Source: an uncultured Chloroflexia bacterium (GTDB lineage: Bacteria; Chloroflexota; Dehalococcoidia; DSTF01; JALHUB01). Taken from it: DNA of 64,000 nucleotides. The stretch spans positions 1,760,001 through 1,824,000 of the forward strand of contig OY969814.1 of the NCBI GenBank assembly GCA_963703345.1. The letters run 5' to 3'. Under the pieces are notes generated by a model. The model was not told the DNA's origin. It saw only the letters and a list, made by a program, of their open reading frames with translations, and ran no database searches. Shown here piece after piece: positions 44,724 to 52,295 of this stretch. Both the position numbers and the translations under genes were made by a program. How positions within the stretch are numbered: the stretch's first letter is position 1; the number at the start of each line of letters is the position of its first letter.

Positions 44724-47192
44724 TCAGTGGTTGCCAAAGGGGTTAATCGGACAACCAGCCTCGTTCGCGGCCTCAAACATGTTCGTTGTCGCCGCATAGT
44801 CGCCGCTGTCGAACGCCGCTTGGAAGGCGGCAATTACCTCCGCCGGCGTATCGATTGCCGGTGGAGGAGAGGTGTAAGGGTTGGTGGCATTCAAGAGAGC
44901 CGCGACGGCCTGCCGGCCCAAGGCGCTCAAGCCACCGCCACCGTACCAAAGGACGTGAAGCAACGGAGGGTCTCCGGCAAACGCATTACGCCCAAACACG
45001 CGGTTGAAGGAATCTGACGGCCTATAGAGCGTCTCCAGCCAGGGCCAGGTCCATCGCCTCCAGAAGCCAAGCGAGCAACCGGTCACTCGTGAGGGTGTTG
45101 TGGCCGGCGTGGGCGTTGCCGTCTTCGTTGGTTTCGGCGTTACCGTTTGACACGGCGGTTTTGGCGTTGGCGTCGCCGTCTTCGTCTTCATCGCCGTCGG
45201 CGTAGATGTCTTCGTTGGTTTCGGCGTTGCCGTCTGACACGGCGGTTTTGGCGTTGGCGTCGCCGTCTTCGTCTTCGTCGGGGTCGGACTCGCCGTATCC
45301 GTCGGCGTCGGCGTAGCGGTATCCGTAGGCGTCTGAGTGGCAGTGTCGGTCGGCGTTGGCGTCCACGTGTCCGTCGGCGTGTTCGTCGGCGTGTTCGTCG
45401 GCGTGTTCGTCGGCGTGTTCGTCGGCGTGTTCGTCGGTGTGTTCGTCGGCGTATTCGTCGGCGTGTTCGTCGGCGTATTCGTCGGCGTGTCCGTCGGCGT
45501 GTTCGTCGGCGTGTTCGTGATCGTCGGCGTGTTGGTCGGCGTGATCGTCGGCGTGTCCGTCGGCGTGTTCGTCGGCGTGTTCGTGATCGTCGGTGTGTCC
45601 GTCGGCGTGTTCGTGATCGTCGGCGTGTTCGTCGGCGTGTTCGTGATCGTCGGCGTGTTGGTCGGCGTGATCGTCGGCGTGTTCGTCGGTGTGTTCGTCG
45701 GCGTGTTCGTGATCGTCGGCGTGTTGGTCGGCGTGATCGTCGGCGTGTTCGTCGGTGTAATCGTCGGCGTGTTCGTGATCGTCGGCGTGTTGGTCGGCGT
45801 GATCGTCGGCGTGTTCGTCGGTGTGTTCGTCGGCGTAATCGTCGGCGTGTTCGTGATCGTCGGCGTGTTGGTCGGCGTGATCGTCGGCGTGTTCGTCGGT
45901 GTGTTCGTCGGCGTAATCGTCGGCGTGTTCGTCGGCGTGTTCGTCGGCGTCGCTGTAGCGGTATTCGTCGGGGTGGGAGTAGGCAGGCAATTGTAGAAGT
46001 CAAGATCACTGCTGTTGCCGTCGGCCGCAACCGTCCGCTCGTAGCAGACACCATAGGGCAGATGCAAGCCGGTACCGCTGGAAGGCGTTGGGGCGCTCTG
46101 TATGCGACCGGGCTGCGCCGACAGGTCCTCGCAGATGGCGTAAGTGCCGGACGGCACGTTCTCGAAAGTGTAGACGCCCGTGTTGTCGGTGGTTGTTTCC
46201 CCCGCCAGCGTTTCGCCGGGAAGCTGCAGCAGCTTGATGGGCACGCCGGCGAGCGGCGAATTGATTCCGGCACTGCCGTCGCAGTTCTGATCGTCGTACT
46301 TGTGGCCGGAGAGGTTGACGCAGATGTCCGCCATCTCCAGCGATATCTCACTGTAGATGTCAGGAAGCGTCGAAGCGTCCTGGACGATACGCGTGTAGCC
46401 GGGGCTCTTGGCGATGTCCGTGAGAAGGGAGGTGTCAAGCTCGTCGGGGTTGCACGACATGGGATCGCAGGGCAGGTGATAGGCGCCGCATGTCGAGCTG
46501 CCGATGCCGACGGTGTAGACGGTGTCAGCGGCGGCGTGAAGGCCCGGGATGGCGTTCTCTGTGTCCGCTCGCCTCTGATGAGTCGCGTCGCAGGTTGTGC
46601 CGTAAGTAGGATCGCCGTCGGCGTAATTTCTGCCGTCTGAGAGGACGACGACGGCCTTGTAGGAGCCGTTAGGGCCGCCATGGACGTGCGCATTCAGGTC
46701 ATTCGTCGCCCTCGTGAGGGCGGGAGCGATGTAGGTGTCGGTTTGTGGCGGAGGATTGGTGATTCCGTTGACTGCCGCACGAATGGCGTCGGCGTCGCTG
46801 CTGAAAGGGATGACGAGATTGATGGGCGCCCCTCCGTCGAAAGTCATCACCTCGACGTGGTCGTTGCCCAGGCTGTGACCGGAGGGCCCGCCGGCAATCG
46901 CGTCGACAAGCGTTACCGCGGCTATCTTAGCCCAGTAAAGGCGGGTCTTTGGCGGGCTGCCGCTGTAGTTGGTGATCATGCTGCCTGTCCGGTCGATGAT
47001 GATGACCACGTCGAGGTCGGCCGGGACGAGACATTGAGCCGGCGGAGTCGCATCAACGACTCCCGCGGACTGCGACATGGTGGCCGCGCTGCCCCTGGCC
47101 GAGTTGACGATACATAAGGCGACAACCGCGGCAAGCACTATGATGAACGAGGGCACAACTAATCGAGCCCGGAGAAGCTTCTTGCGACTCAT
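44724..47192 (-). CDS. Exported VWA-domain surface protein with CnaB/SdrD-like domain and long Thr/Pro stalk
   Basis: MIDAS DRTGSM...VVLSDG; SGHKYDD...[11 protein letters not shown]; long TPTN run; C-terminal GCSLGFW...AVAALLNA domain. Confidence 0.85.
45110..45975 (-). repeat. Coding tandem repeat (12-nt TPTN-type units, interspersed TITN units) plus a duplicated [14 protein letters not shown] block
   Basis: GTCGGCGTGTTC and variants repeated many times. Confidence 0.95.
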
Positions 47193-47435
47193 TTTTCGCT
47201 CCTCTTCCCATAAGGACGCACTGAATGACTTCTCCGGGGCGGGGGCAGGAGCAAGCCTGGTCGGGGATTCTTGCTTGCCTATTAAAGCACAAATTCTCTC
47301 GTATGTCTATACGGCCATCGCCGTCCGAAGCTGAACATGACCACTTTCTTCGTGTTGGGAGGCAAAGACGGAGGCCGGCGCCGGCCGCGACAGATTCGGC
47401 GAGCAGCAACGCCTCGCGGAGGCGAGAGATGGAGG

Positions 47436-47451
47436 ACTGGCTCCCCGAGCA
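47436..47451 (-). repeat. att-like copy of the tRNA-Asn 3' end
   Basis: ACTGGCTCCCCGAGCA is identical to 50381-50396. Confidence 0.6.
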
Positions 47452-47508
47452 CCAGGGAGGGGCGCCAGTTGTTACCGGCGAGGCCCTAACTTCTCACGCG
47501 CGACCGAT

Positions 47509-48069
47509 CTGATCATCGCCGACACGGGCAACAACGTCGTCCGCTGGGTCCACGGCCCTTCCGGCCTGATCGGTACCCTTGCCGGCACGGGAACCGCCGG
47601 TTTCTCCGGCGACGGCGGCGTTGCCGTTCAGGCCAAGCTCAACGGCCCGGAGGCCCTGGCGTCCGATGGTTCCCTCGCTGTCCTCATCGCCGATACTCAG
47701 AACAACCGGCTGCGCCGCGTCACCTTCGGTGATGCCACGATCACCACCGTCGCCGGCGGCGGCAGCGGCTGCGATGCGAATCAGACGGCGCCCTACGACG
47801 GCTGCCCGGCGACGGACGCTGTCCTCGATCATCCAGCGGGAGTCGCTCTCGGAAGTTGCCAGACCTCGGATACCGGCAGTCAGGCTATCCGCGGAATCGA
47901 TTCGTGCACCGGGTTGCCCGTCGGCGGCTTCACCGGCTCGACAGGTTGCACATACGGCACGACGGCCACTATCGACGTTGTATTCATGCTCCTTCCTCTC
48001 GGGCTGGTCCTCAGCCGAAGGCGCATCAGATCCATGTTCGGACAGATTCGGAGGGTGAGCAAGCTATGA
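47509..48069 (+). pseudogene. 5'-truncated NHL-repeat surface protein fragment
   Basis: Frame lacks a start codon; LIIADTGNNVVR...LAGTGTAGFSGDGG...IADTQNNRLRRV; ends in a TM helix + RRR with ATGA overlap to the next gene. Confidence 0.8.
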
Positions 48070-50072
48070 GCTTCGTCAGGCGCGGGGCCCGAACCGTCTT
48101 GGCGTTCGCAATCTCGGCAGCCGTCCTTGGTGCGGCCGCAAGCGCCCTAATGGCGGTATTCCCCGCATCGGGAAGGACGGCCGTCGCCACCACCCCCTAC
48201 CCTACGCCGGCTCTGAAGTGGGACGTGTCCATGTCGGACAAGATACCCACTCCCGCTATAACATGCCCGCAGCAGCCGCCGGGGGACAATGATGGAAACA
48301 TCGACCCGGGCGAGTCTCCCAACGTGACCAACGAGTTTTGGATTCAGCCGAACGGTGGTGTGGGCGGAGCTCAGCCCATGTTTGATAGAGCAAATGTCAT
48401 ATGGATGACGGGGCCGCTTCTTGGGAGCGATGTGACGGCGCCGCAAGACGGCTTGGCCCCCAAGCGGGTCAATACGGTGGGCGCCAAGGTGGGCATGGTC
48501 AGCATTCAGATGCAGTCGAACATGTTCACGGGAACGTTGACCACAAACAACATCGATGATATCGCCAGCGCCGCAGACTCCACGCTTAACGGCCAGCCGC
48601 CGCGCTGTGGAGCCGACGTCACCGGCGACGGCCGTCCGGACACGCTTGCTCTTACGGACTCCTTCGAGCTTTGGAACGCCGCCTTCCACACGGACGGCAG
48701 CGACCCCATCATCGAGTACGGGGAGGCTCAGGCGCCGGACAGTGCATTTCCGTCCGGCTGCGACGTGAGTGGCAGTACTCCGAATCATGCGTGCGCTCCC
48801 CGGGCCATACGCGGACTACCAAGGCCCATACTGGCCCTCGAGACCGCCATGGGCTTGACGTCGGCTTCCAGGGTGAGTCGCGCCTACGGTATCGCCAAGC
48901 TTCCCATCGTCGGCGGCATCACCAGTAATCTCGACGTCAACTTCCTGGTCTACAGCCTGCATAACAAAGGGACAAACGGCTACTTGAGTGTCACCCTCAT
49001 CCAGTATCCGGGCCTGCCCTCAGCAGATCCAACCAACGCGAACTACAACCCGCTGTCGCAGAGCGTCCAGACCTGTCCTCCCTATTGGAGCTCGGCCACC
49101 GTCTACGGCGTCACTTCCAGCCCTGATTTCGATGAGGACGGAGTGTCTGACCTAGCCGTGACGTCGGAGATCAACCGCCTAGTTCAGCCGCAAACGGTGA
49201 CGGGGAAGTCCTACGACTACTACATCGAGACCTCCATGGCCGCCGACTACGACGGCGATGGGATTCCCGCCTATGCCGACCGCTGTCGCACCGATCCCGC
49301 TTCGGGCAGCGCCACCAGCGACAGCGACGGCGACGGCCTATCGGGGACCTGCGACACGAACGGCCAGAACAACACTCCAGCGAGTGGGAGCTGGAAGAGT
49401 AAGCCGCCCTGGGACGACAACCAGGACGTGGACCATGACGGGATCCTGAACTCTGTGGACAACTGCCCGACCGCCTGGAACCCCGACCAGAAGGACACAG
49501 ACGGCGACAGCGTGGGGGATGCCTGTGACCCTGCCCCCACAATCCCGGGCGACGGGCACGGCTACGCTAGCCCGGCCCCCGGCATGTTCGTCCGCTATGT
49601 CGACATCTGCCGGGATCCGTGGACTGTCGGCCAGCCTGAGCTGAGCGGCAGCGGCGACCCCGGTCGACAGTGCTTGAAACAAGACGGCGTGATCACGAAC
49701 TGGCAGGACTCCAATAATGACGGCGTGCCCGACTACCTAGACATGAGATCCTTAACCCCACCCGGCCCCCTTCTGGCTGACTGCCACAGCGATAGCGACC
49801 ACGACGGATTCGTGGATGCAATGGAGGCGGCGCCCACTAATGTGGAGCCCTGTCCGGCATTCGGGTTTGCCAAAGCCAGCGACCCACTCGATGCCTCCTC
49901 TCCAGGAGGTGGGGTAGCTGTTGGCGGGATAGCGGAGCCACCCACCGAATCAGGCTCCTACGCTGAACATGGTTCCGCGCTTCCCTTCAGTGTCCTCGCC
50001 GCGCTCATGCTTCTCGCCGCCGTCGCCGTCCTCATCGCGTTCGGAGACTGGTACCGTCGCCGGCACAACTGA
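48066..50072 (+). CDS. Secreted surface protein with thrombospondin type-3-like Ca-binding repeats and C-terminal membrane anchor
   Basis: Signal peptide; DYDGDG, DVDHDGILNSVDNCP, DTDGDSVGDACD; VAVGGIAE + TM helix + RRRH. Confidence 0.85.
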   Translation: MSFVRRGARTVLAFAISAAVLGAAASALMAVFPASGRTAVATTPYPTPALKWDVSMSDKIPTPAITCPQQPPGDNDGNIDPGESPNVTNEFWIQPNGGVGGAQPMFDRANVIWMTGPLLGSDVTAPQDGLAPKRVNTVGAKVGMVSIQMQSNMFTGTLTTNNIDDIASAADSTLNGQPPRCGADVTGDGRPDTLALTDSFELWNAAFHTDGSDPIIEYGEAQAPDSAFPSGCDVSGSTPNHACAPRAIRGLPRPILALETAMGLTSASRVSRAYGIAKLPIVGGITSNLDVNFLVYSLHNKGTNGYLSVTLIQYPGLPSADPTNANYNPLSQSVQTCPPYWSSATVYGVTSSPDFDEDGVSDLAVTSEINRLVQPQTVTGKSYDYYIETSMAADYDGDGIPAYADRCRTDPASGSATSDSDGDGLSGTCDTNGQNNTPASGSWKSKPPWDDNQDVDHDGILNSVDNCPTAWNPDQKDTDGDSVGDACDPAPTIPGDGHGYASPAPGMFVRYVDICRDPWTVGQPELSGSGDPGRQCLKQDGVITNWQDSNNDGVPDYLDMRSLTPPGPLLADCHSDSDHDGFVDAMEAAPTNVEPCPAFGFAKASDPLDASSPGGGVAVGGIAEPPTESGSYAEHGSALPFSVLAALMLLAAVAVLIAFGDWYRRRHN

Positions 50073-50169
50073 AGCTGCCCAATAGCGGAAGCGACCGGAG
50101 ATCCGCCTTCGCGAAGCCCTTCTCGCAGTCGAAGGAGCTCCCCTGTTCCCAGTCCCTGGCCCGCTCGAG

Positions 50170-50424
50170 ATGGGCTTCGTCGCGACGGAGACAGTGCGGA
50201 CGGCTCTTGGCGAGTTCGGCAGGGTTTACGAGTGTCTCACGCCGTACGAGCGGAAGGAACTCGTACGGCTCGTCCTGCGCCGCGTCGAGGTGAACGACCG
50301 ACAGATCGCGATGGAACTGTACCCCTTCGACTTGCCACAAACGGAGGTGGCCCAGAGCAGTTTACGCTCTGAGCCACCAAACTGGCTCCCCGAGCAGGAC
50401 TCGAACCTGCAACCTAGCGGTTAA
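50170..50424 (+). pseudogene. C-terminal remnant of a probable large serine recombinase reading into the tRNA att site
   Basis: LTPYERKELVRLVLRRVEV pattern; tail WLPEQDSNLQPSG is encoded by antisense tRNA-Asn; no catalytic domain visible. Confidence 0.65.
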
Positions 50425-50451
50425 TCCGCCTCGGGCGGACCCGCTCTACCG
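50383..50451 (-). repeat. Partial tRNA-Asn copy (D-arm to CCA) with palindrome-disrupted anticodon arm
   Basis: 42 nt identical to the tRNA 3' half, then TCCGCCTCGGGCGGA, then CCCGCTCTACCG. Confidence 0.9.
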
Positions 50452-50690
50452 CTTAGATGGTCAGCAAGCAAGCGCCGCCCGCGACCGGTCTTCAGTTGGC
50501 GCTCACGGCCCATCGCCTCGCCGCGGCTGGCGAAATGCTCGGAGTAGACTAGATGCCAGGGTCCCCGGCCACGCGTCCAGCCAGCCTCGTCGTTCTGATG
50601 CCGCGCCACACGGCGGTCGATCTCCGCTGTCGAGCCGACGTAGAGGCGTCCCTGCGCATTCCTAAGCACGTAGACGGAGAATCTTGTCAC
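50421..50690 (-). CDS. Small GIY-YIG nuclease (UPF0213-like)
   Basis: VYVL...LYVGST...RR..H...T....PW.LVYSE...EA..RE.QLK; 89 aa. Confidence 0.9.
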   Translation of the reverse strand: MTRFSVYVLRNAQGRLYVGSTAEIDRRVARHQNDEAGWTRGRGPWHLVYSEHFASRGEAMGRERQLKTGRGRRLLADHLSGRAGPPEAD

Positions 50691-50703
50691 GAGAGGTTGA
50701 GAT

Positions 50704-50779
50704 TGGCTCCCCGAGCAGGACTCGAACCTGCAACCTAGCGGTTAACAGCCGCCCGCTCTACCGATTGAGCTATCGGGGA
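50704..50779 (-). tRNA. tRNA-Asn (GTT)
   Basis: Intact 76-nt cloverleaf; loop CTGTTAA; 3' GCCA. Confidence 0.95.
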
Positions 50780-51092
50780 GCACCCGATATCCATCTATAT
50801 TCCGCTGGCCATCGAGCCACGTCTAGACCTAGCGGTTAATCCGCCTCCGGCGGACCCGCTCTACCGATTGAGCTATCGGGGAGCACCCGATATCCATCTA
50901 TATTCCGCTGGCCATCGAGCCACGTCTAGACCTAGCGGTTAATCCGCCTCCGGCGGACCCGCTCTACCGATTGAGCTATCGGGGAGCACCCGATATCCAT
51001 CTATATTCCGCTGGCCATCGAGCCACGTCTAGACCTAGCGGTTAATCCGCCTCCGGCGGACCCGCTCTACCGATTGAGCTATCGGGGAGCAC
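50752..51092 (-). repeat. 103-bp tandem repeat (about 3.3 copies) derived from tRNA-Asn
   Basis: Units start at 50752, 50855, 50958 and 51061 and are identical as read. Confidence 0.95.
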
Positions 51093-51107
51093 TTCGGCCC
51101 TCTGGCG

Positions 51108-51181
51108 TGGCTGCCGAGCCAGGACTCGAACCTGGACTAAGGGATCCAAAGTCCCTGGTGCTACCATTACACCACTCGGCA
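51108..51181 (-). tRNA. tRNA-Gln (TTG)
   Basis: Loop CTTTGGA; 3' GCCA. Confidence 0.94.
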
Positions 51182-51244
51182 GCGGATGAGTCTATCCGCA
51201 CATCAATGAAGGCGGGTTCTCCCGCCTTCCGCCTGATCGTGAAC

Positions 51245-51333
51245 TGGTGCCGAAGGCCGGGATCGAACCGGCACGAGGGTCGCCCCTCAACAGTTTTTGA
51301 GACTGTCGCGTCTACCTGTTCCGCCACTTCGGC
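51245..51333 (-). tRNA. tRNA-Leu (CAA)
   Basis: Loop CTCAAAA; long variable arm; 3' ACCA. Confidence 0.94.
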
Positions 51334-51335
51334 TT

Positions 51336-51410
<75 letters not shown>

Positions 51411-51464
51411 CCCCGACTCTGCCGCTGCGAACGCAAGCAGCGTCGCCCTTCACAGAGCGACCCT

Positions 51465-51493
51465 ATTATAGTCAAAGGCAGGTCGCTCGACAA
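51465..51493 (-). promoter_or_regulatory. Sigma70 promoter of the Gly-Leu-Gln-Asn tRNA operon
   Basis: Minus strand TTGTCG-17 nt-TATAAT. Confidence 0.7.
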
Positions 51494-51518
51494 GCAAGCG
51501 GCAGCCGGACACGCGCTG

Positions 51519-52295
51519 CTACCGCCCTTTGTAGACCGGCGGACGCTTCTCGGCGAAGGCCTTCGGGCCCTCCCTGCCGTCCTCAGTGGTGTGGACGAAC
51601 AGGGAGAAGAGTGACTCCAGTCGCAGGCCCTCCATGAGCGGAAGGTCGAGGCCGCGAAGGGCGGCTTCTTTGACGAGGCGGACCGCGATGGGGGCGCTCT
51701 CGTTGATGCGCTGCGCCAGCGCCATCGCTTCCGCCATCAGCTCGCCTCGCGCGACGACGTAGTTTACCAGGCCGATACGGCACGCCTCCTGGGCGTCGAT
51801 TCGCTCGCCGGTGAACATGAGCTGGAGCGCGACGCCGGCCGGGACGACGCGCGGCAAGAGCTGCGTGCCGCCGTTCCCCGGTATGATGCCGCGGGTCACC
51901 TCCGTCAGGGCAAAGGAGGCGCTGTCGGCGGCGATGCGGATGTCGCAGGCAAGCGCCAACTCGAGTCCACCTGCAAGGCAGTAGCCATTCACGGCGGCGA
52001 TGATCGGCTTCCAGAGCTCGATGTTGCGGAGAAGGGAAGCCATCGTCAGGCCGGCAGGGTCGACGCCCGGCTCGCGTTGCAGGTCGCTCATCTCCTTGAG
52101 GTCGGCGCCTGCGGAGAAAGCCTTGTCGCCGGCGCCGGTGAGGACGAGCGTGCGGGCATCCTCGTCGTCGCGGAACCGCAGGAAGGAGTCGCGAAGAGCC
52201 TCGCGCACCTCCGTGTTGATGGCGTTCATCGCCTCCGGCCGGTTGAGCGTAAGGACGACCGTGCGGCCGCGCTTCTCGTAGAGAACGACGGGCAT
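51519..52295 (-). CDS. Enoyl-CoA hydratase/isomerase
   Basis: LNRPEAMNA, AFSAGADLKE, AAVNGYCLAGGLELALACD. Confidence 0.93.
   Translation of the reverse strand: MPVVLYEKRGRTVVLTLNRPEAMNAINTEVREALRDSFLRFRDDEDARTLVLTGAGDKAFSAGADLKEMSDLQREPGVDPAGLTMASLLRNIELWKPIIAAVNGYCLAGGLELALACDIRIAADSASFALTEVTRGIIPGNGGTQLLPRVVPAGVALQLMFTGERIDAQEACRIGLVNYVVARGELMAEAMALAQRINESAPIAVRLVKEAALRGLDLPLMEGLRLESLFSLFVHTTEDGREGPKAFAEKRPPVYKGR

Follow-up and report, generated by a model that had tools for sequence, protein, structure and literature searches.

Organization of the tRNA-Asn locus

The source genome (G000; other G numbers denote comparison genomes and L numbers pooled loci) is a single contig of 2.28 Mb, and its closest protein relatives are labelled Dehalococcoidia. 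Within the window, by which we mean the whole 64,000-nucleotide stretch that was analysed, an intact tRNA-Asn(GTT) gene lies on the minus strand at 50704..50779 (ARAGORN; Rfam 71.4 bits; cloverleaf fold) and is the sole intron-free tRNA-Asn call in the genome. On the same strand follow a 13-nt pyrimidine-rich leader without an SD-like word (50691..50703), a gene with a GTG start for a single-domain GIY-YIG nuclease of 89 aa (50421..50690; Pfam PF01541), and an altered copy of the tRNA into which this gene runs. The copy is composed of a short arm that matches tRNA positions 17-28 exactly over 12 nt within the last codons of the ORF (50440..50451), a hairpin, TCCGCC-CGA-GGCGGA, in place of tRNA positions 29-34 (50425..50439), and a long arm covering tRNA positions 35-76 to CCA, which contains the TAA stop of the ORF (50383..50424). 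CGGCTG at tRNA 29-34 has been replaced by TCCGCCCGAGGCGGA at 50439-50425, a 6-3-6 hairpin. The long arm (50424-50383) is identical to the intact tRNA-Asn at 42/42 positions, with an offset of exactly 321 bp, and the original chromosomal junction comes directly after it. The last codons of the nuclease gene, SGRAGPPEAD, are D-arm sequence and hairpin in translation, and its TAA stop corresponds to tRNA positions 36-38 in the anticodon loop. Nuclease gene and tRNA share their orientation, and expression from the tRNA operon would fit.

These features had been described in an earlier sequence-only reading (an intact tRNA-Asn, 13 nt, an 89-aa GIY-YIG gene without SD, a 3' copy at 321 bp, a tail encoded by the D-arm and the palindrome, a stop in the anticodon loop, and a substituted CGGCTG in the anticodon arm), and all of them are present in the sequence. 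Its description of a minimal tRNA-associated element without integrase or intron also stands, since the 321-bp unit contains one ORF and no integrase of its own, and Rfam found no intron family in 47000-52000 (E up to 1). A tRNA intron with a homing endonuclease was rejected, as the tRNA is whole and uninterrupted.

The feature proved larger than described, since three identical ORF-less units of 103 bp upstream had been missed. Sequence comparison places unit 1 at 50986..51088 (hairpin 51046-51060), unit 2 at 50883..50985 (hairpin 50943-50957) and unit 3 at 50780..50882 (hairpin 50840-50854), all on the minus strand; the copy number, three at 51088-50780, is as assembled. Each unit is made of tRNA 1-28, the hairpin TCCGCC-GGA-GGCGGA, tRNA 35-47 and a 47-nt spacer that holds the new leader. 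Unit 1 occupies the resident tRNA-Asn position behind tRNA-Gln, so that the order on the minus strand is tRNA-Gly, -Leu, -Gln, the three 103-bp units, the intact tRNA-Asn, the leader, the GIY-YIG gene and the altered copy. Both an altered 3' copy and an altered 5' copy are therefore contained in the window. Matches to TCCGCC-N2-6-GGCGGA numbered 5 in the window versus 0.10 expected, and at least 5 were reached in 0/100 shuffles. Tandem upstream units are also found in unrelated assemblies, at L215 (two copies, one base apart) and L069. When folded, the altered copies gave an extended hairpin and no cloverleaf; as the z-scores were only -1.6 to -2.0, this fold was not used as evidence.

The encoded protein

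The 89-aa protein matches Pfam PF01541 with 53.1 bits (cutoff 22.6), and GIY-YIG is the sole Pfam family above cutoff. No NCBIfam family scored above its cutoff (TIGR01453, 19.1 bits against 56), and matches in the ESM Atlas were restricted to generic GIY-YIG clusters. Across 38 aligned relatives, Y7, Y17, G19, R27, H31 and E63 are invariant, and residues 67-72 form a K-x-G-x-G-R motif. The AlphaFold model consists of a single domain (pLDDT 83.6) with a disordered tail, and in these 89 aa neither Pfam nor the model gives a C-terminal DNA-binding domain. The closest solved relatives are UPF0213 proteins and Slx1: 1zg2 is the closest solved sequence (E 5e-16), and Foldseek returned 1zg2 (E 1.5e-5) and Slx1 (TM about 0.6). 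A GRAGPPxAD-like tail, which is the translated D-arm plus hairpin, ends about half of 48 homologues. The coding sequences point to purifying selection, with dN/dS values of 0.05-0.34 in 18/20 close pairs, the remaining 2 being saturated.

Filled and empty alleles

We then compared the locus among related genomes. The tRNA-Asn was seen in 17 genomes, namely the source genome and 16/17 family members; G009 yielded only a distant tRNA match and stands outside this count. The sequence-only reading had proposed a comparison of filled and empty loci. The GIY-YIG gene at tRNA-Asn and the altered tRNA-Asn copies occur together, in the same 3/17 genomes (G000, G011 and G017; up to 260 nt viewed per side, with the flanks of the gene-free G004 and G005 ending early at contig ends). 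G017 has the layout of G000 on an identical tRNA-Asn; its hairpin, however, is of the TCCTTC type, and its protein belongs to another subtype. In G003 and G007, the tRNA-Asn is joined directly to the end of the recombinase island that neighbours the cassette in G000, and no cassette is present (90-92% identity over 243 nt). Because these two genomes carry the island end without the cassette, the cassette is a 321-bp insertion independent of the island, and in sequence comparison a clean one relative to congeners.

The island end itself is a C-terminal remnant of a gene (50170..50382, plus strand), which, judged from a longer copy in G003, is probably a large serine recombinase; the piece in the window had no Pfam or NCBIfam match. 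Since this remnant is also present in the empty alleles, it lies outside the cassette. A 16-bp att-like copy of the tRNA-Asn 3' end (47436..47451, minus strand) closes this separate island of 2.9 kb, and G002 appears to represent the allele without it. The island (47452-50382) lies between tRNA-Asn 3' ends and, along with the recombinase remnant, encodes one secreted-looking protein, 738 aa long, in which Pfam identifies a thrombospondin type 3 repeat (TSP_3). Beyond it, at 44724-47192 on the minus strand, an 822-aa VWA plus SdrD-like protein has a long Pro-Thr repeat of 12/18-bp units.

A clade of nucleases linked to tRNA genes

Loci were pooled from a GTDB scan with a narrow peptide seed (49 loci), 41 relatives, 301 genomes of the phylum and viral contigs. 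In a quick maximum-likelihood tree of 170 proteins (209 before clustering at 85%; 79 columns), the tRNA-linked proteins fall within a clade of 134 rows with an SH-aLRT of 99. Among the loci found by protein search, tRNA sequence lies within 300 nt on the same strand at 73/76 clade loci versus 0/39 outgroup loci, and a full tRNA at 61/76; among the loci counted here, two are from G000, and one genome can contribute several. For two of the three misses (L009 and L052), altered tRNA pieces are visible by eye. The enrichment of homologues at tRNAs and hairpins that the sequence-only reading suggested looking for is thus strong. The targets comprise eleven tRNA types (Asn, Met, Gln, Lys, Val, Ile, Ala, Ser, Leu, Pro and Glu), with subclades restricted to one tRNA each in this tree, and the loci come from seven phylum-level groups (Chloroflexota, Saccharibacteria, Verrucomicrobiota, Planctomycetota, Acidobacteriota, Calditrichota and Peribacteria). 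The GIY-YIG gene of the window is therefore one of a family that sits at tRNA genes beside hairpin-substituted partial tRNA copies.

The altered copies follow a two-type geometry. Where an intact tRNA is present, 17/18 upstream copies begin at tRNA position 1 and reach 8-23 nt beyond the hairpin. Downstream, 66/80 arm pairs extend to the 3' end and start 8-22 nt before the hairpin, while 0/80 begin at position 1; in this table a copy can appear in more than one row, parsed differently, and the lower limit of 8 nt comes from the seed. The segments replaced by hairpins lie in the D-loop, the anticodon arm or the T-loop, and some copies have two hairpins. On tRNA-Asn, the 3' junction of the hairpin lies nearly always just before TTAACC, with any hairpin type, and the 4 bases beside the hairpin agree with the local tRNA allele in 42/46 copies. 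Tandem arrays are common and identical (five genes at L022, three at L051 and two at L005). Occupancy is patchy: among 9 congeneric genomes it is 1 for Asn, 4 for Val, 3 for Ser, 1 for Met and 1 for Leu, and G001 has none. Because only 1/4 pattern matches in viral material is a cassette and 0/3 viral homologues fall in the clade, no transfer vehicle was identified.

Several smaller features accompany these loci. SD-like words occur near 48/101 genes, a count that we set aside, since GGAG is part of the tRNA's own 3' end. At L004, L025 and L031 the start codon is only 4-8 nt past the tRNA CCA, which places this GGAG at SD distance; at the tRNA-Asn of the source genome it is too far from the start codon. 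Stop codons supplied by the tRNA recur across subfamilies. L065 and L068, both at tRNA-Met, consist of irregular arrays of hairpin-bearing tRNA pieces in which the gene stops on the TAA or TAG of the tRNA. In altered copies at L215, L071 and L052, the stretch from the anticodon-arm hairpin to the T-loop hairpin is deleted, which suggests hairpin-to-hairpin recombination.

Outside the clade, several genes lie in longer REP-like arrays, and two match the Ssn SRM consensus. In particular, small GIY-YIG genes of Chloroflexota (L072, L074-L077, L269 and L273) are found within arrays of longer REP-like palindromes; L269 and L273 are the two that match, and the others seem to have SRM variants outside the published pattern.

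Hairpin type follows protein type

We also searched metagenomes with a pattern blind to both hairpin and gene, whose sole requirement was additional bases between the D-arm and the anticodon of tRNA-Asn. At least 118 loci were found. Among the matches listed, 106/118 loci contain a TCC..GGA-type hairpin, a GIY-YIG gene adjoins it in 92/106, and where 300 nt of flank is available on both sides the gene is present in 75/81; of the remaining 12 loci among these matches, 10 look chance-like and have no gene, and 2 have a degenerate hairpin and a gene.

Among the matches listed, 72 distinct proteins end at an altered tRNA-Asn copy and have a classifiable C-terminal motif. K.G.GR pairs with TCCGCC in 10 of these, K.G..NQ with TCCTTC in 15 and K.[WMRLK][KT]S with TCCCGA/G in 46, so that in this set the stem type agrees with the C-terminal motif in 71/72 proteins, the exception being a degenerate TCCGCC. 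Two nuclease types stand in tandem at L176 and at L227, each followed by its own hairpin. A mismatch occurs at L178, where an upstream unit with TCCTTC lies beside a G.GR-type gene. The upstream units of L178, L195 and L245 are near-identical and bear different hairpin types, and hence hairpins appear to be exchangeable while the flanks stay. As the motif is only about 45 nt from the hairpin, the match at the gene could reflect linkage alone.

Dispersed hairpin copies

The only evidence that escapes this linkage is provided by dispersed copies, with counts taken from related genomes. Unlinked TCCGCC-N3-GGCGGA had a median of 8 (1-72) in 17 G.GR-type genomes versus 1 (0-14) in 19 genomes without a clade member, in a comparison that omits 5 genomes with other or unclear types and includes non-independent kin. 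The two NQ-type genomes have 15 and 27 TCCTTC hairpins, and G017 has only 2 of the TCCGCC type. Genome-wide hairpins therefore tend to match the resident nuclease type. Some genomes depart from this pattern: 14 TCCGCC hairpins are found in G001 (330 contigs) and 19 TCCTTC plus 10 TCCGCC in G015 (240 contigs), with no clade member found in either, and G029 and G006 have clade members and only 1-2 TCCGCC. Counts of GTCGCC hairpins in the 41 genomes had a high background. The source genome has 14 TCCGCC copies, of which 4 belong to the tRNA-Asn locus; the reversed control gave 3. Two of the three hairpin types have mostly 3-nt loops ending in A (28/34 and 34/43).

Forty regions with dispersed copies were fetched (20 from G009, 12 from G016 and 8 from G017), some of which align as insertions in genes. 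For the 12 sent to Rfam, hairpins were located inside RNase P RNA, 23S rRNA, a T-box leader and a c-di-GMP riboswitch (L315). One RNase P position has TCCGCC in G000 and TCCTTC in G017. In the source genome, TCCGCC hairpins are also nested in longer REP-like intergenic repeats (G000:C1:1004305, 2042075, 2074448, 2074576, 2137080 and 2156782).

Relation to known systems

Integrative elements that target tRNA genes restore the tRNA and leave part of it duplicated at their far end. The cassette likewise has an intact tRNA with a partial duplicate at the other end, but it is 321 bp long, lacks an integrase, has duplicated sequence on both sides of the hairpin, and comes in 5'-end and 3'-end forms.

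The closest functional likeness is to the Ssn nucleases (cd10448), which are also single-domain GIY-YIG proteins of about 90 aa with two Tyr and a Glu. According to the text of Chenal et al (2025; PMC11893778), SsnA is a 94-aa single-domain protein that binds its hairpin solely in ssDNA, ignoring dsDNA and RNA, and makes its cut a few nt upstream. Y7, Y17 and E63 of the 89-aa protein correspond to Y6, Y17 and E64, which are mutated in SsnA there (PMC11893778). In the same account, the Ssn gene is flanked by its cognate hairpin (NTS/SRM), which is also dispersed, and hairpin variants are enzyme specific (PMC11893778). The SRM consensus had 0 matches in 49900-51200, whereas the same pattern matched L269 and L273 three times each; as it misses the other REP-flanked outgroup genes, the pattern is narrow. 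In the tree of 170 proteins, which was built without SsnA itself, our clade is separate from the SRM-flanked L269 and L273 (37-40% identity), and its hairpins are much shorter (15-20 bp) and dock at tRNA genes with partial duplication. The word 'tRNA' occurs 0 times in the main text of Chenal et al (PMC11893778).

In its location, the gene resembles T4 SegB, a free-standing GIY-YIG gene in a tRNA cluster that is described as co-transcribed with the tRNAs (PMC2330249). However, as reported in that text, SegB is phage-borne, has a C-terminal NUMOD3 DNA-binding part that the 89-aa protein lacks, and makes double-strand breaks at tRNA 3' ends, and the text mentions no partial tRNA copy with a substituted arm (PMC2330249). 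The REP/REPIN-RAYT system and CGTC repeats also tie a nuclease gene to short dispersed palindromes, some of them in genes, but RAYT is an HUH tyrosine transposase (PMC3733652), and the tRNA-docking hairpins have no GTAG or CGTC tags. At our locus an HUH Y1 transposase gene is absent, Pfam giving only GIY-YIG above cutoff, and 'GIY' occurs 0 times in the text of the RAYT/CGTC paper (PMC3733652). As for the bacterial Slx1-like/UPF0213 proteins (1zg2, 1ywl) and Slx1, which are the closest in solved sequence and fold, the text consulted reports no tRNA or hairpin context for stand-alone bacterial members (PMC1564403). Because the SRM test failed and neither a DNA-binding domain nor an integrase or HUH transposase is present, we file the cassette in none of the Ssn, SegB and REP-RAYT groups; its action may be Ssn-like, and its location is SegB-like.

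A literature search with subscription papers mostly outside its scope found no description of tRNA-docking, hairpin-flanked GIY-YIG cassettes, and Ssn supplements may list members of the clade. The feature is real, mobile-looking and of the nuclease-hairpin kind, and what we add to this kind are the hairpin-blind test and the match between motif and hairpin.

A model for the cassette and its alternatives

From the layout, the filled and empty alleles, the link between clade and tRNA genes, the hairpin-protein matching, the dispersed hairpins and the purifying selection observed above, we consider it somewhat probable that the cassette is a selfish one in which, by analogy with SsnA, hairpin-directed cutting would make tRNA-homologous ends recombinogenic, leaving it to host repair to dock and amplify the cassette. 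The gene would be transcribed from the tRNA operon and end in tRNA-derived sequence. Its product would bind the hairpin in single-stranded DNA and nick beside it, as SsnA does, and the segment after the catalytic Glu helix would read the stem or co-vary with it. Because stem type follows the protein and hairpins are dispersed genome-wide, the hairpin is more likely a putative recognition site of the enzyme, as in Ssn ssDNA nucleases, than a protective mark. The unit would then offer two arms, a long one reaching a tRNA end and, on the other side of the hairpin, a short one of about 8-23 nt, and one crossover in the long arm (ends-in, Campbell geometry) would restore a whole tRNA while the hairpin stays in the spare copy. 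With the crossover 3' of the hairpin, the product would be tRNA, gene and altered 3' copy; with the crossover 5' of it, altered 5' copy, cargo and tRNA. The observed arm geometry would fit a long-arm crossover, because only that product should keep the tRNA whole. If such events recur, tandem arrays and ORF-less units could result, as could stray hairpins within other stem-loops and genes. Survival would be limited to products that keep a tRNA intact, and the hairpin would serve as the enzyme's handle and not as a shield. Against this model, a hydrolytic nuclease cannot join DNA, the first writing of the hairpin into a new site is left unexplained, and arms of 8-20 nt are short for RecA. In addition, the Neisseria SsnA is described as lowering integration of hairpin-bearing DNA (PMC11893778).

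A bolder version, which is possible but which we hold with real doubt, would make the cassette an integrase-free mobile element of ~0.3 kb. Its GIY-YIG protein would read the 15-20 bp hairpin via an exchangeable C-terminal motif, the tRNA arms would do the targeting, new arms would retarget it, and the hairpin would be written into stem-loops genome-wide. If true, nuclease-hairpin pairs would form a natural code, and there would be a mechanism by which tiny palindromes spread.

Other explanations account for part of the evidence. The sequence-only reading had proposed a homing-type element whose nuclease cuts the intact tRNA gene at the anticodon arm, the hairpin marking or protecting used sites. 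We regard homing at this or another arm as unlikely. T4 SegB does provide a GIY-YIG enzyme that cuts tRNA genes, with tRNA-Asn as the preferred T2L site in the published text (PMC2330249), and the near-constant junction before TTAACC and the restriction of subclades to one tRNA would suit it. Yet hairpins also sit in D-loops and T-loops, an intact tRNA persists in cis at 61/76 loci, and any disruption would protect, while stems are conserved and loops variable. On tRNA-Asn, identical in G000 and G017, the stem type goes with the protein, the protein has no DNA-binding domain, and hairpins are present far from tRNAs, so the proposal of cutting and protection is disfavoured. Also improbable is a domesticated, slow host nuclease-repeat pair of the REP-RAYT or Neisseria SsnA kind, with the gene parked at tRNAs for expression and hairpins collecting passively. 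Purifying selection, the tolerance of hairpins in RNase P RNA and 23S rRNA, and the domestication of SsnA proposed by Chenal et al (PMC11893778) speak for it, but patchy occupancy among the 9 congeneric genomes, the identical arrays at L022, L051 and L005, and the precise two-type geometry do not. The suspicion that the duplication was left by the recombinase island as att-site debris, or is an artefact of assembly, can practically be dismissed. It would draw on the contact between island end and altered copy, the 16-bp tRNA end at 47436-47451 and the identity of the three upstream units as assembled; nevertheless, the empty alleles G003 and G007 refute an att-site origin, which the sequence-only reading had itself named as the rival source of the duplication, and dozens of independent assemblies show the same layout at other tRNAs.

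Control at the RNA level, with altered tRNA transcripts neutralizing or regulating a toxic nuclease, seems very unlikely to us. Type III toxin-antitoxin systems offer a likeness, and the orientation common to gene and tRNA, the tandem ORF-less units upstream and the protein-hairpin matching are compatible with it. However, many loci have a single copy that overlaps the stop codon, and the 3-nt loops ending in A that prevail in two hairpin types suit DNA mini-hairpins. SsnA, moreover, is described as showing no RNA interaction (PMC11893778). Less probable still is DNA-guided targeting, in which an arm-hairpin-arm strand would anneal to the tRNA gene as a three-way junction, direct a nick in the target strand and prime copying of the cassette. 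Both layouts have arms on both sides of the hairpin, the 4 bases beside it agree with the local tRNA allele in 42/46 copies, the closest solved folds include the junction cutter Slx1, and SsnA is reported to cut with the hairpin split over two oligos (PMC11893778), but the local tRNA match is equally explained by local origin or gene conversion. This alternative overlaps with the host-repair model that we prefer, the sole difference being which strand is cut.

On the spread of very short palindromic repeats in bacterial genomes, Chenal et al go no further than to hypothesize that Ssn-hairpin pairs are mobile (PMC11893778). Since the family offers both filled and empty alleles, derivatives without the ORF, tandem arrays and no fewer than three motif/hairpin pairs on one tRNA, this mobility hypothesis becomes directly testable. 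If confirmed, the cassette would count as one of the smallest mobile elements with site specificity, and it would supply ssDNA nucleases that are sequence-specific and have a candidate specificity motif. A class of false or odd tRNA calls in annotation, and of C-terminal GRAGPPxAD tails, is explained by it as well.

Related features elsewhere in the source genome

A second locus, L274 (G000:C1:1147895-1148970), is found at tRNA-Ser(GCT), with two related GIY-YIG genes and a duplicated promoter. Both genes are flanked by partial tRNA-Ser copies with a CCCGCC-type hairpin inserted in the T-loop, and the KTPEGG protein subtype recurs at tRNA-Ser in G007, G008 and G009. The intact tRNA-Ile in the rRNA spacer is directly preceded, at G000:C1:1263520-1263580, by a degenerate 5' copy of itself that has no ORF and in which a hairpin takes the place of the anticodon arm. 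Finally, repeated tRNA-Val 3' ends (G000:C1:1255397, 1257376, 1258599, 1920594, 1921899 and 1981954) lie 1-2 kb apart in a manner resembling a cassette array, and a conserved stretch of about 60 nt comes after each of them.
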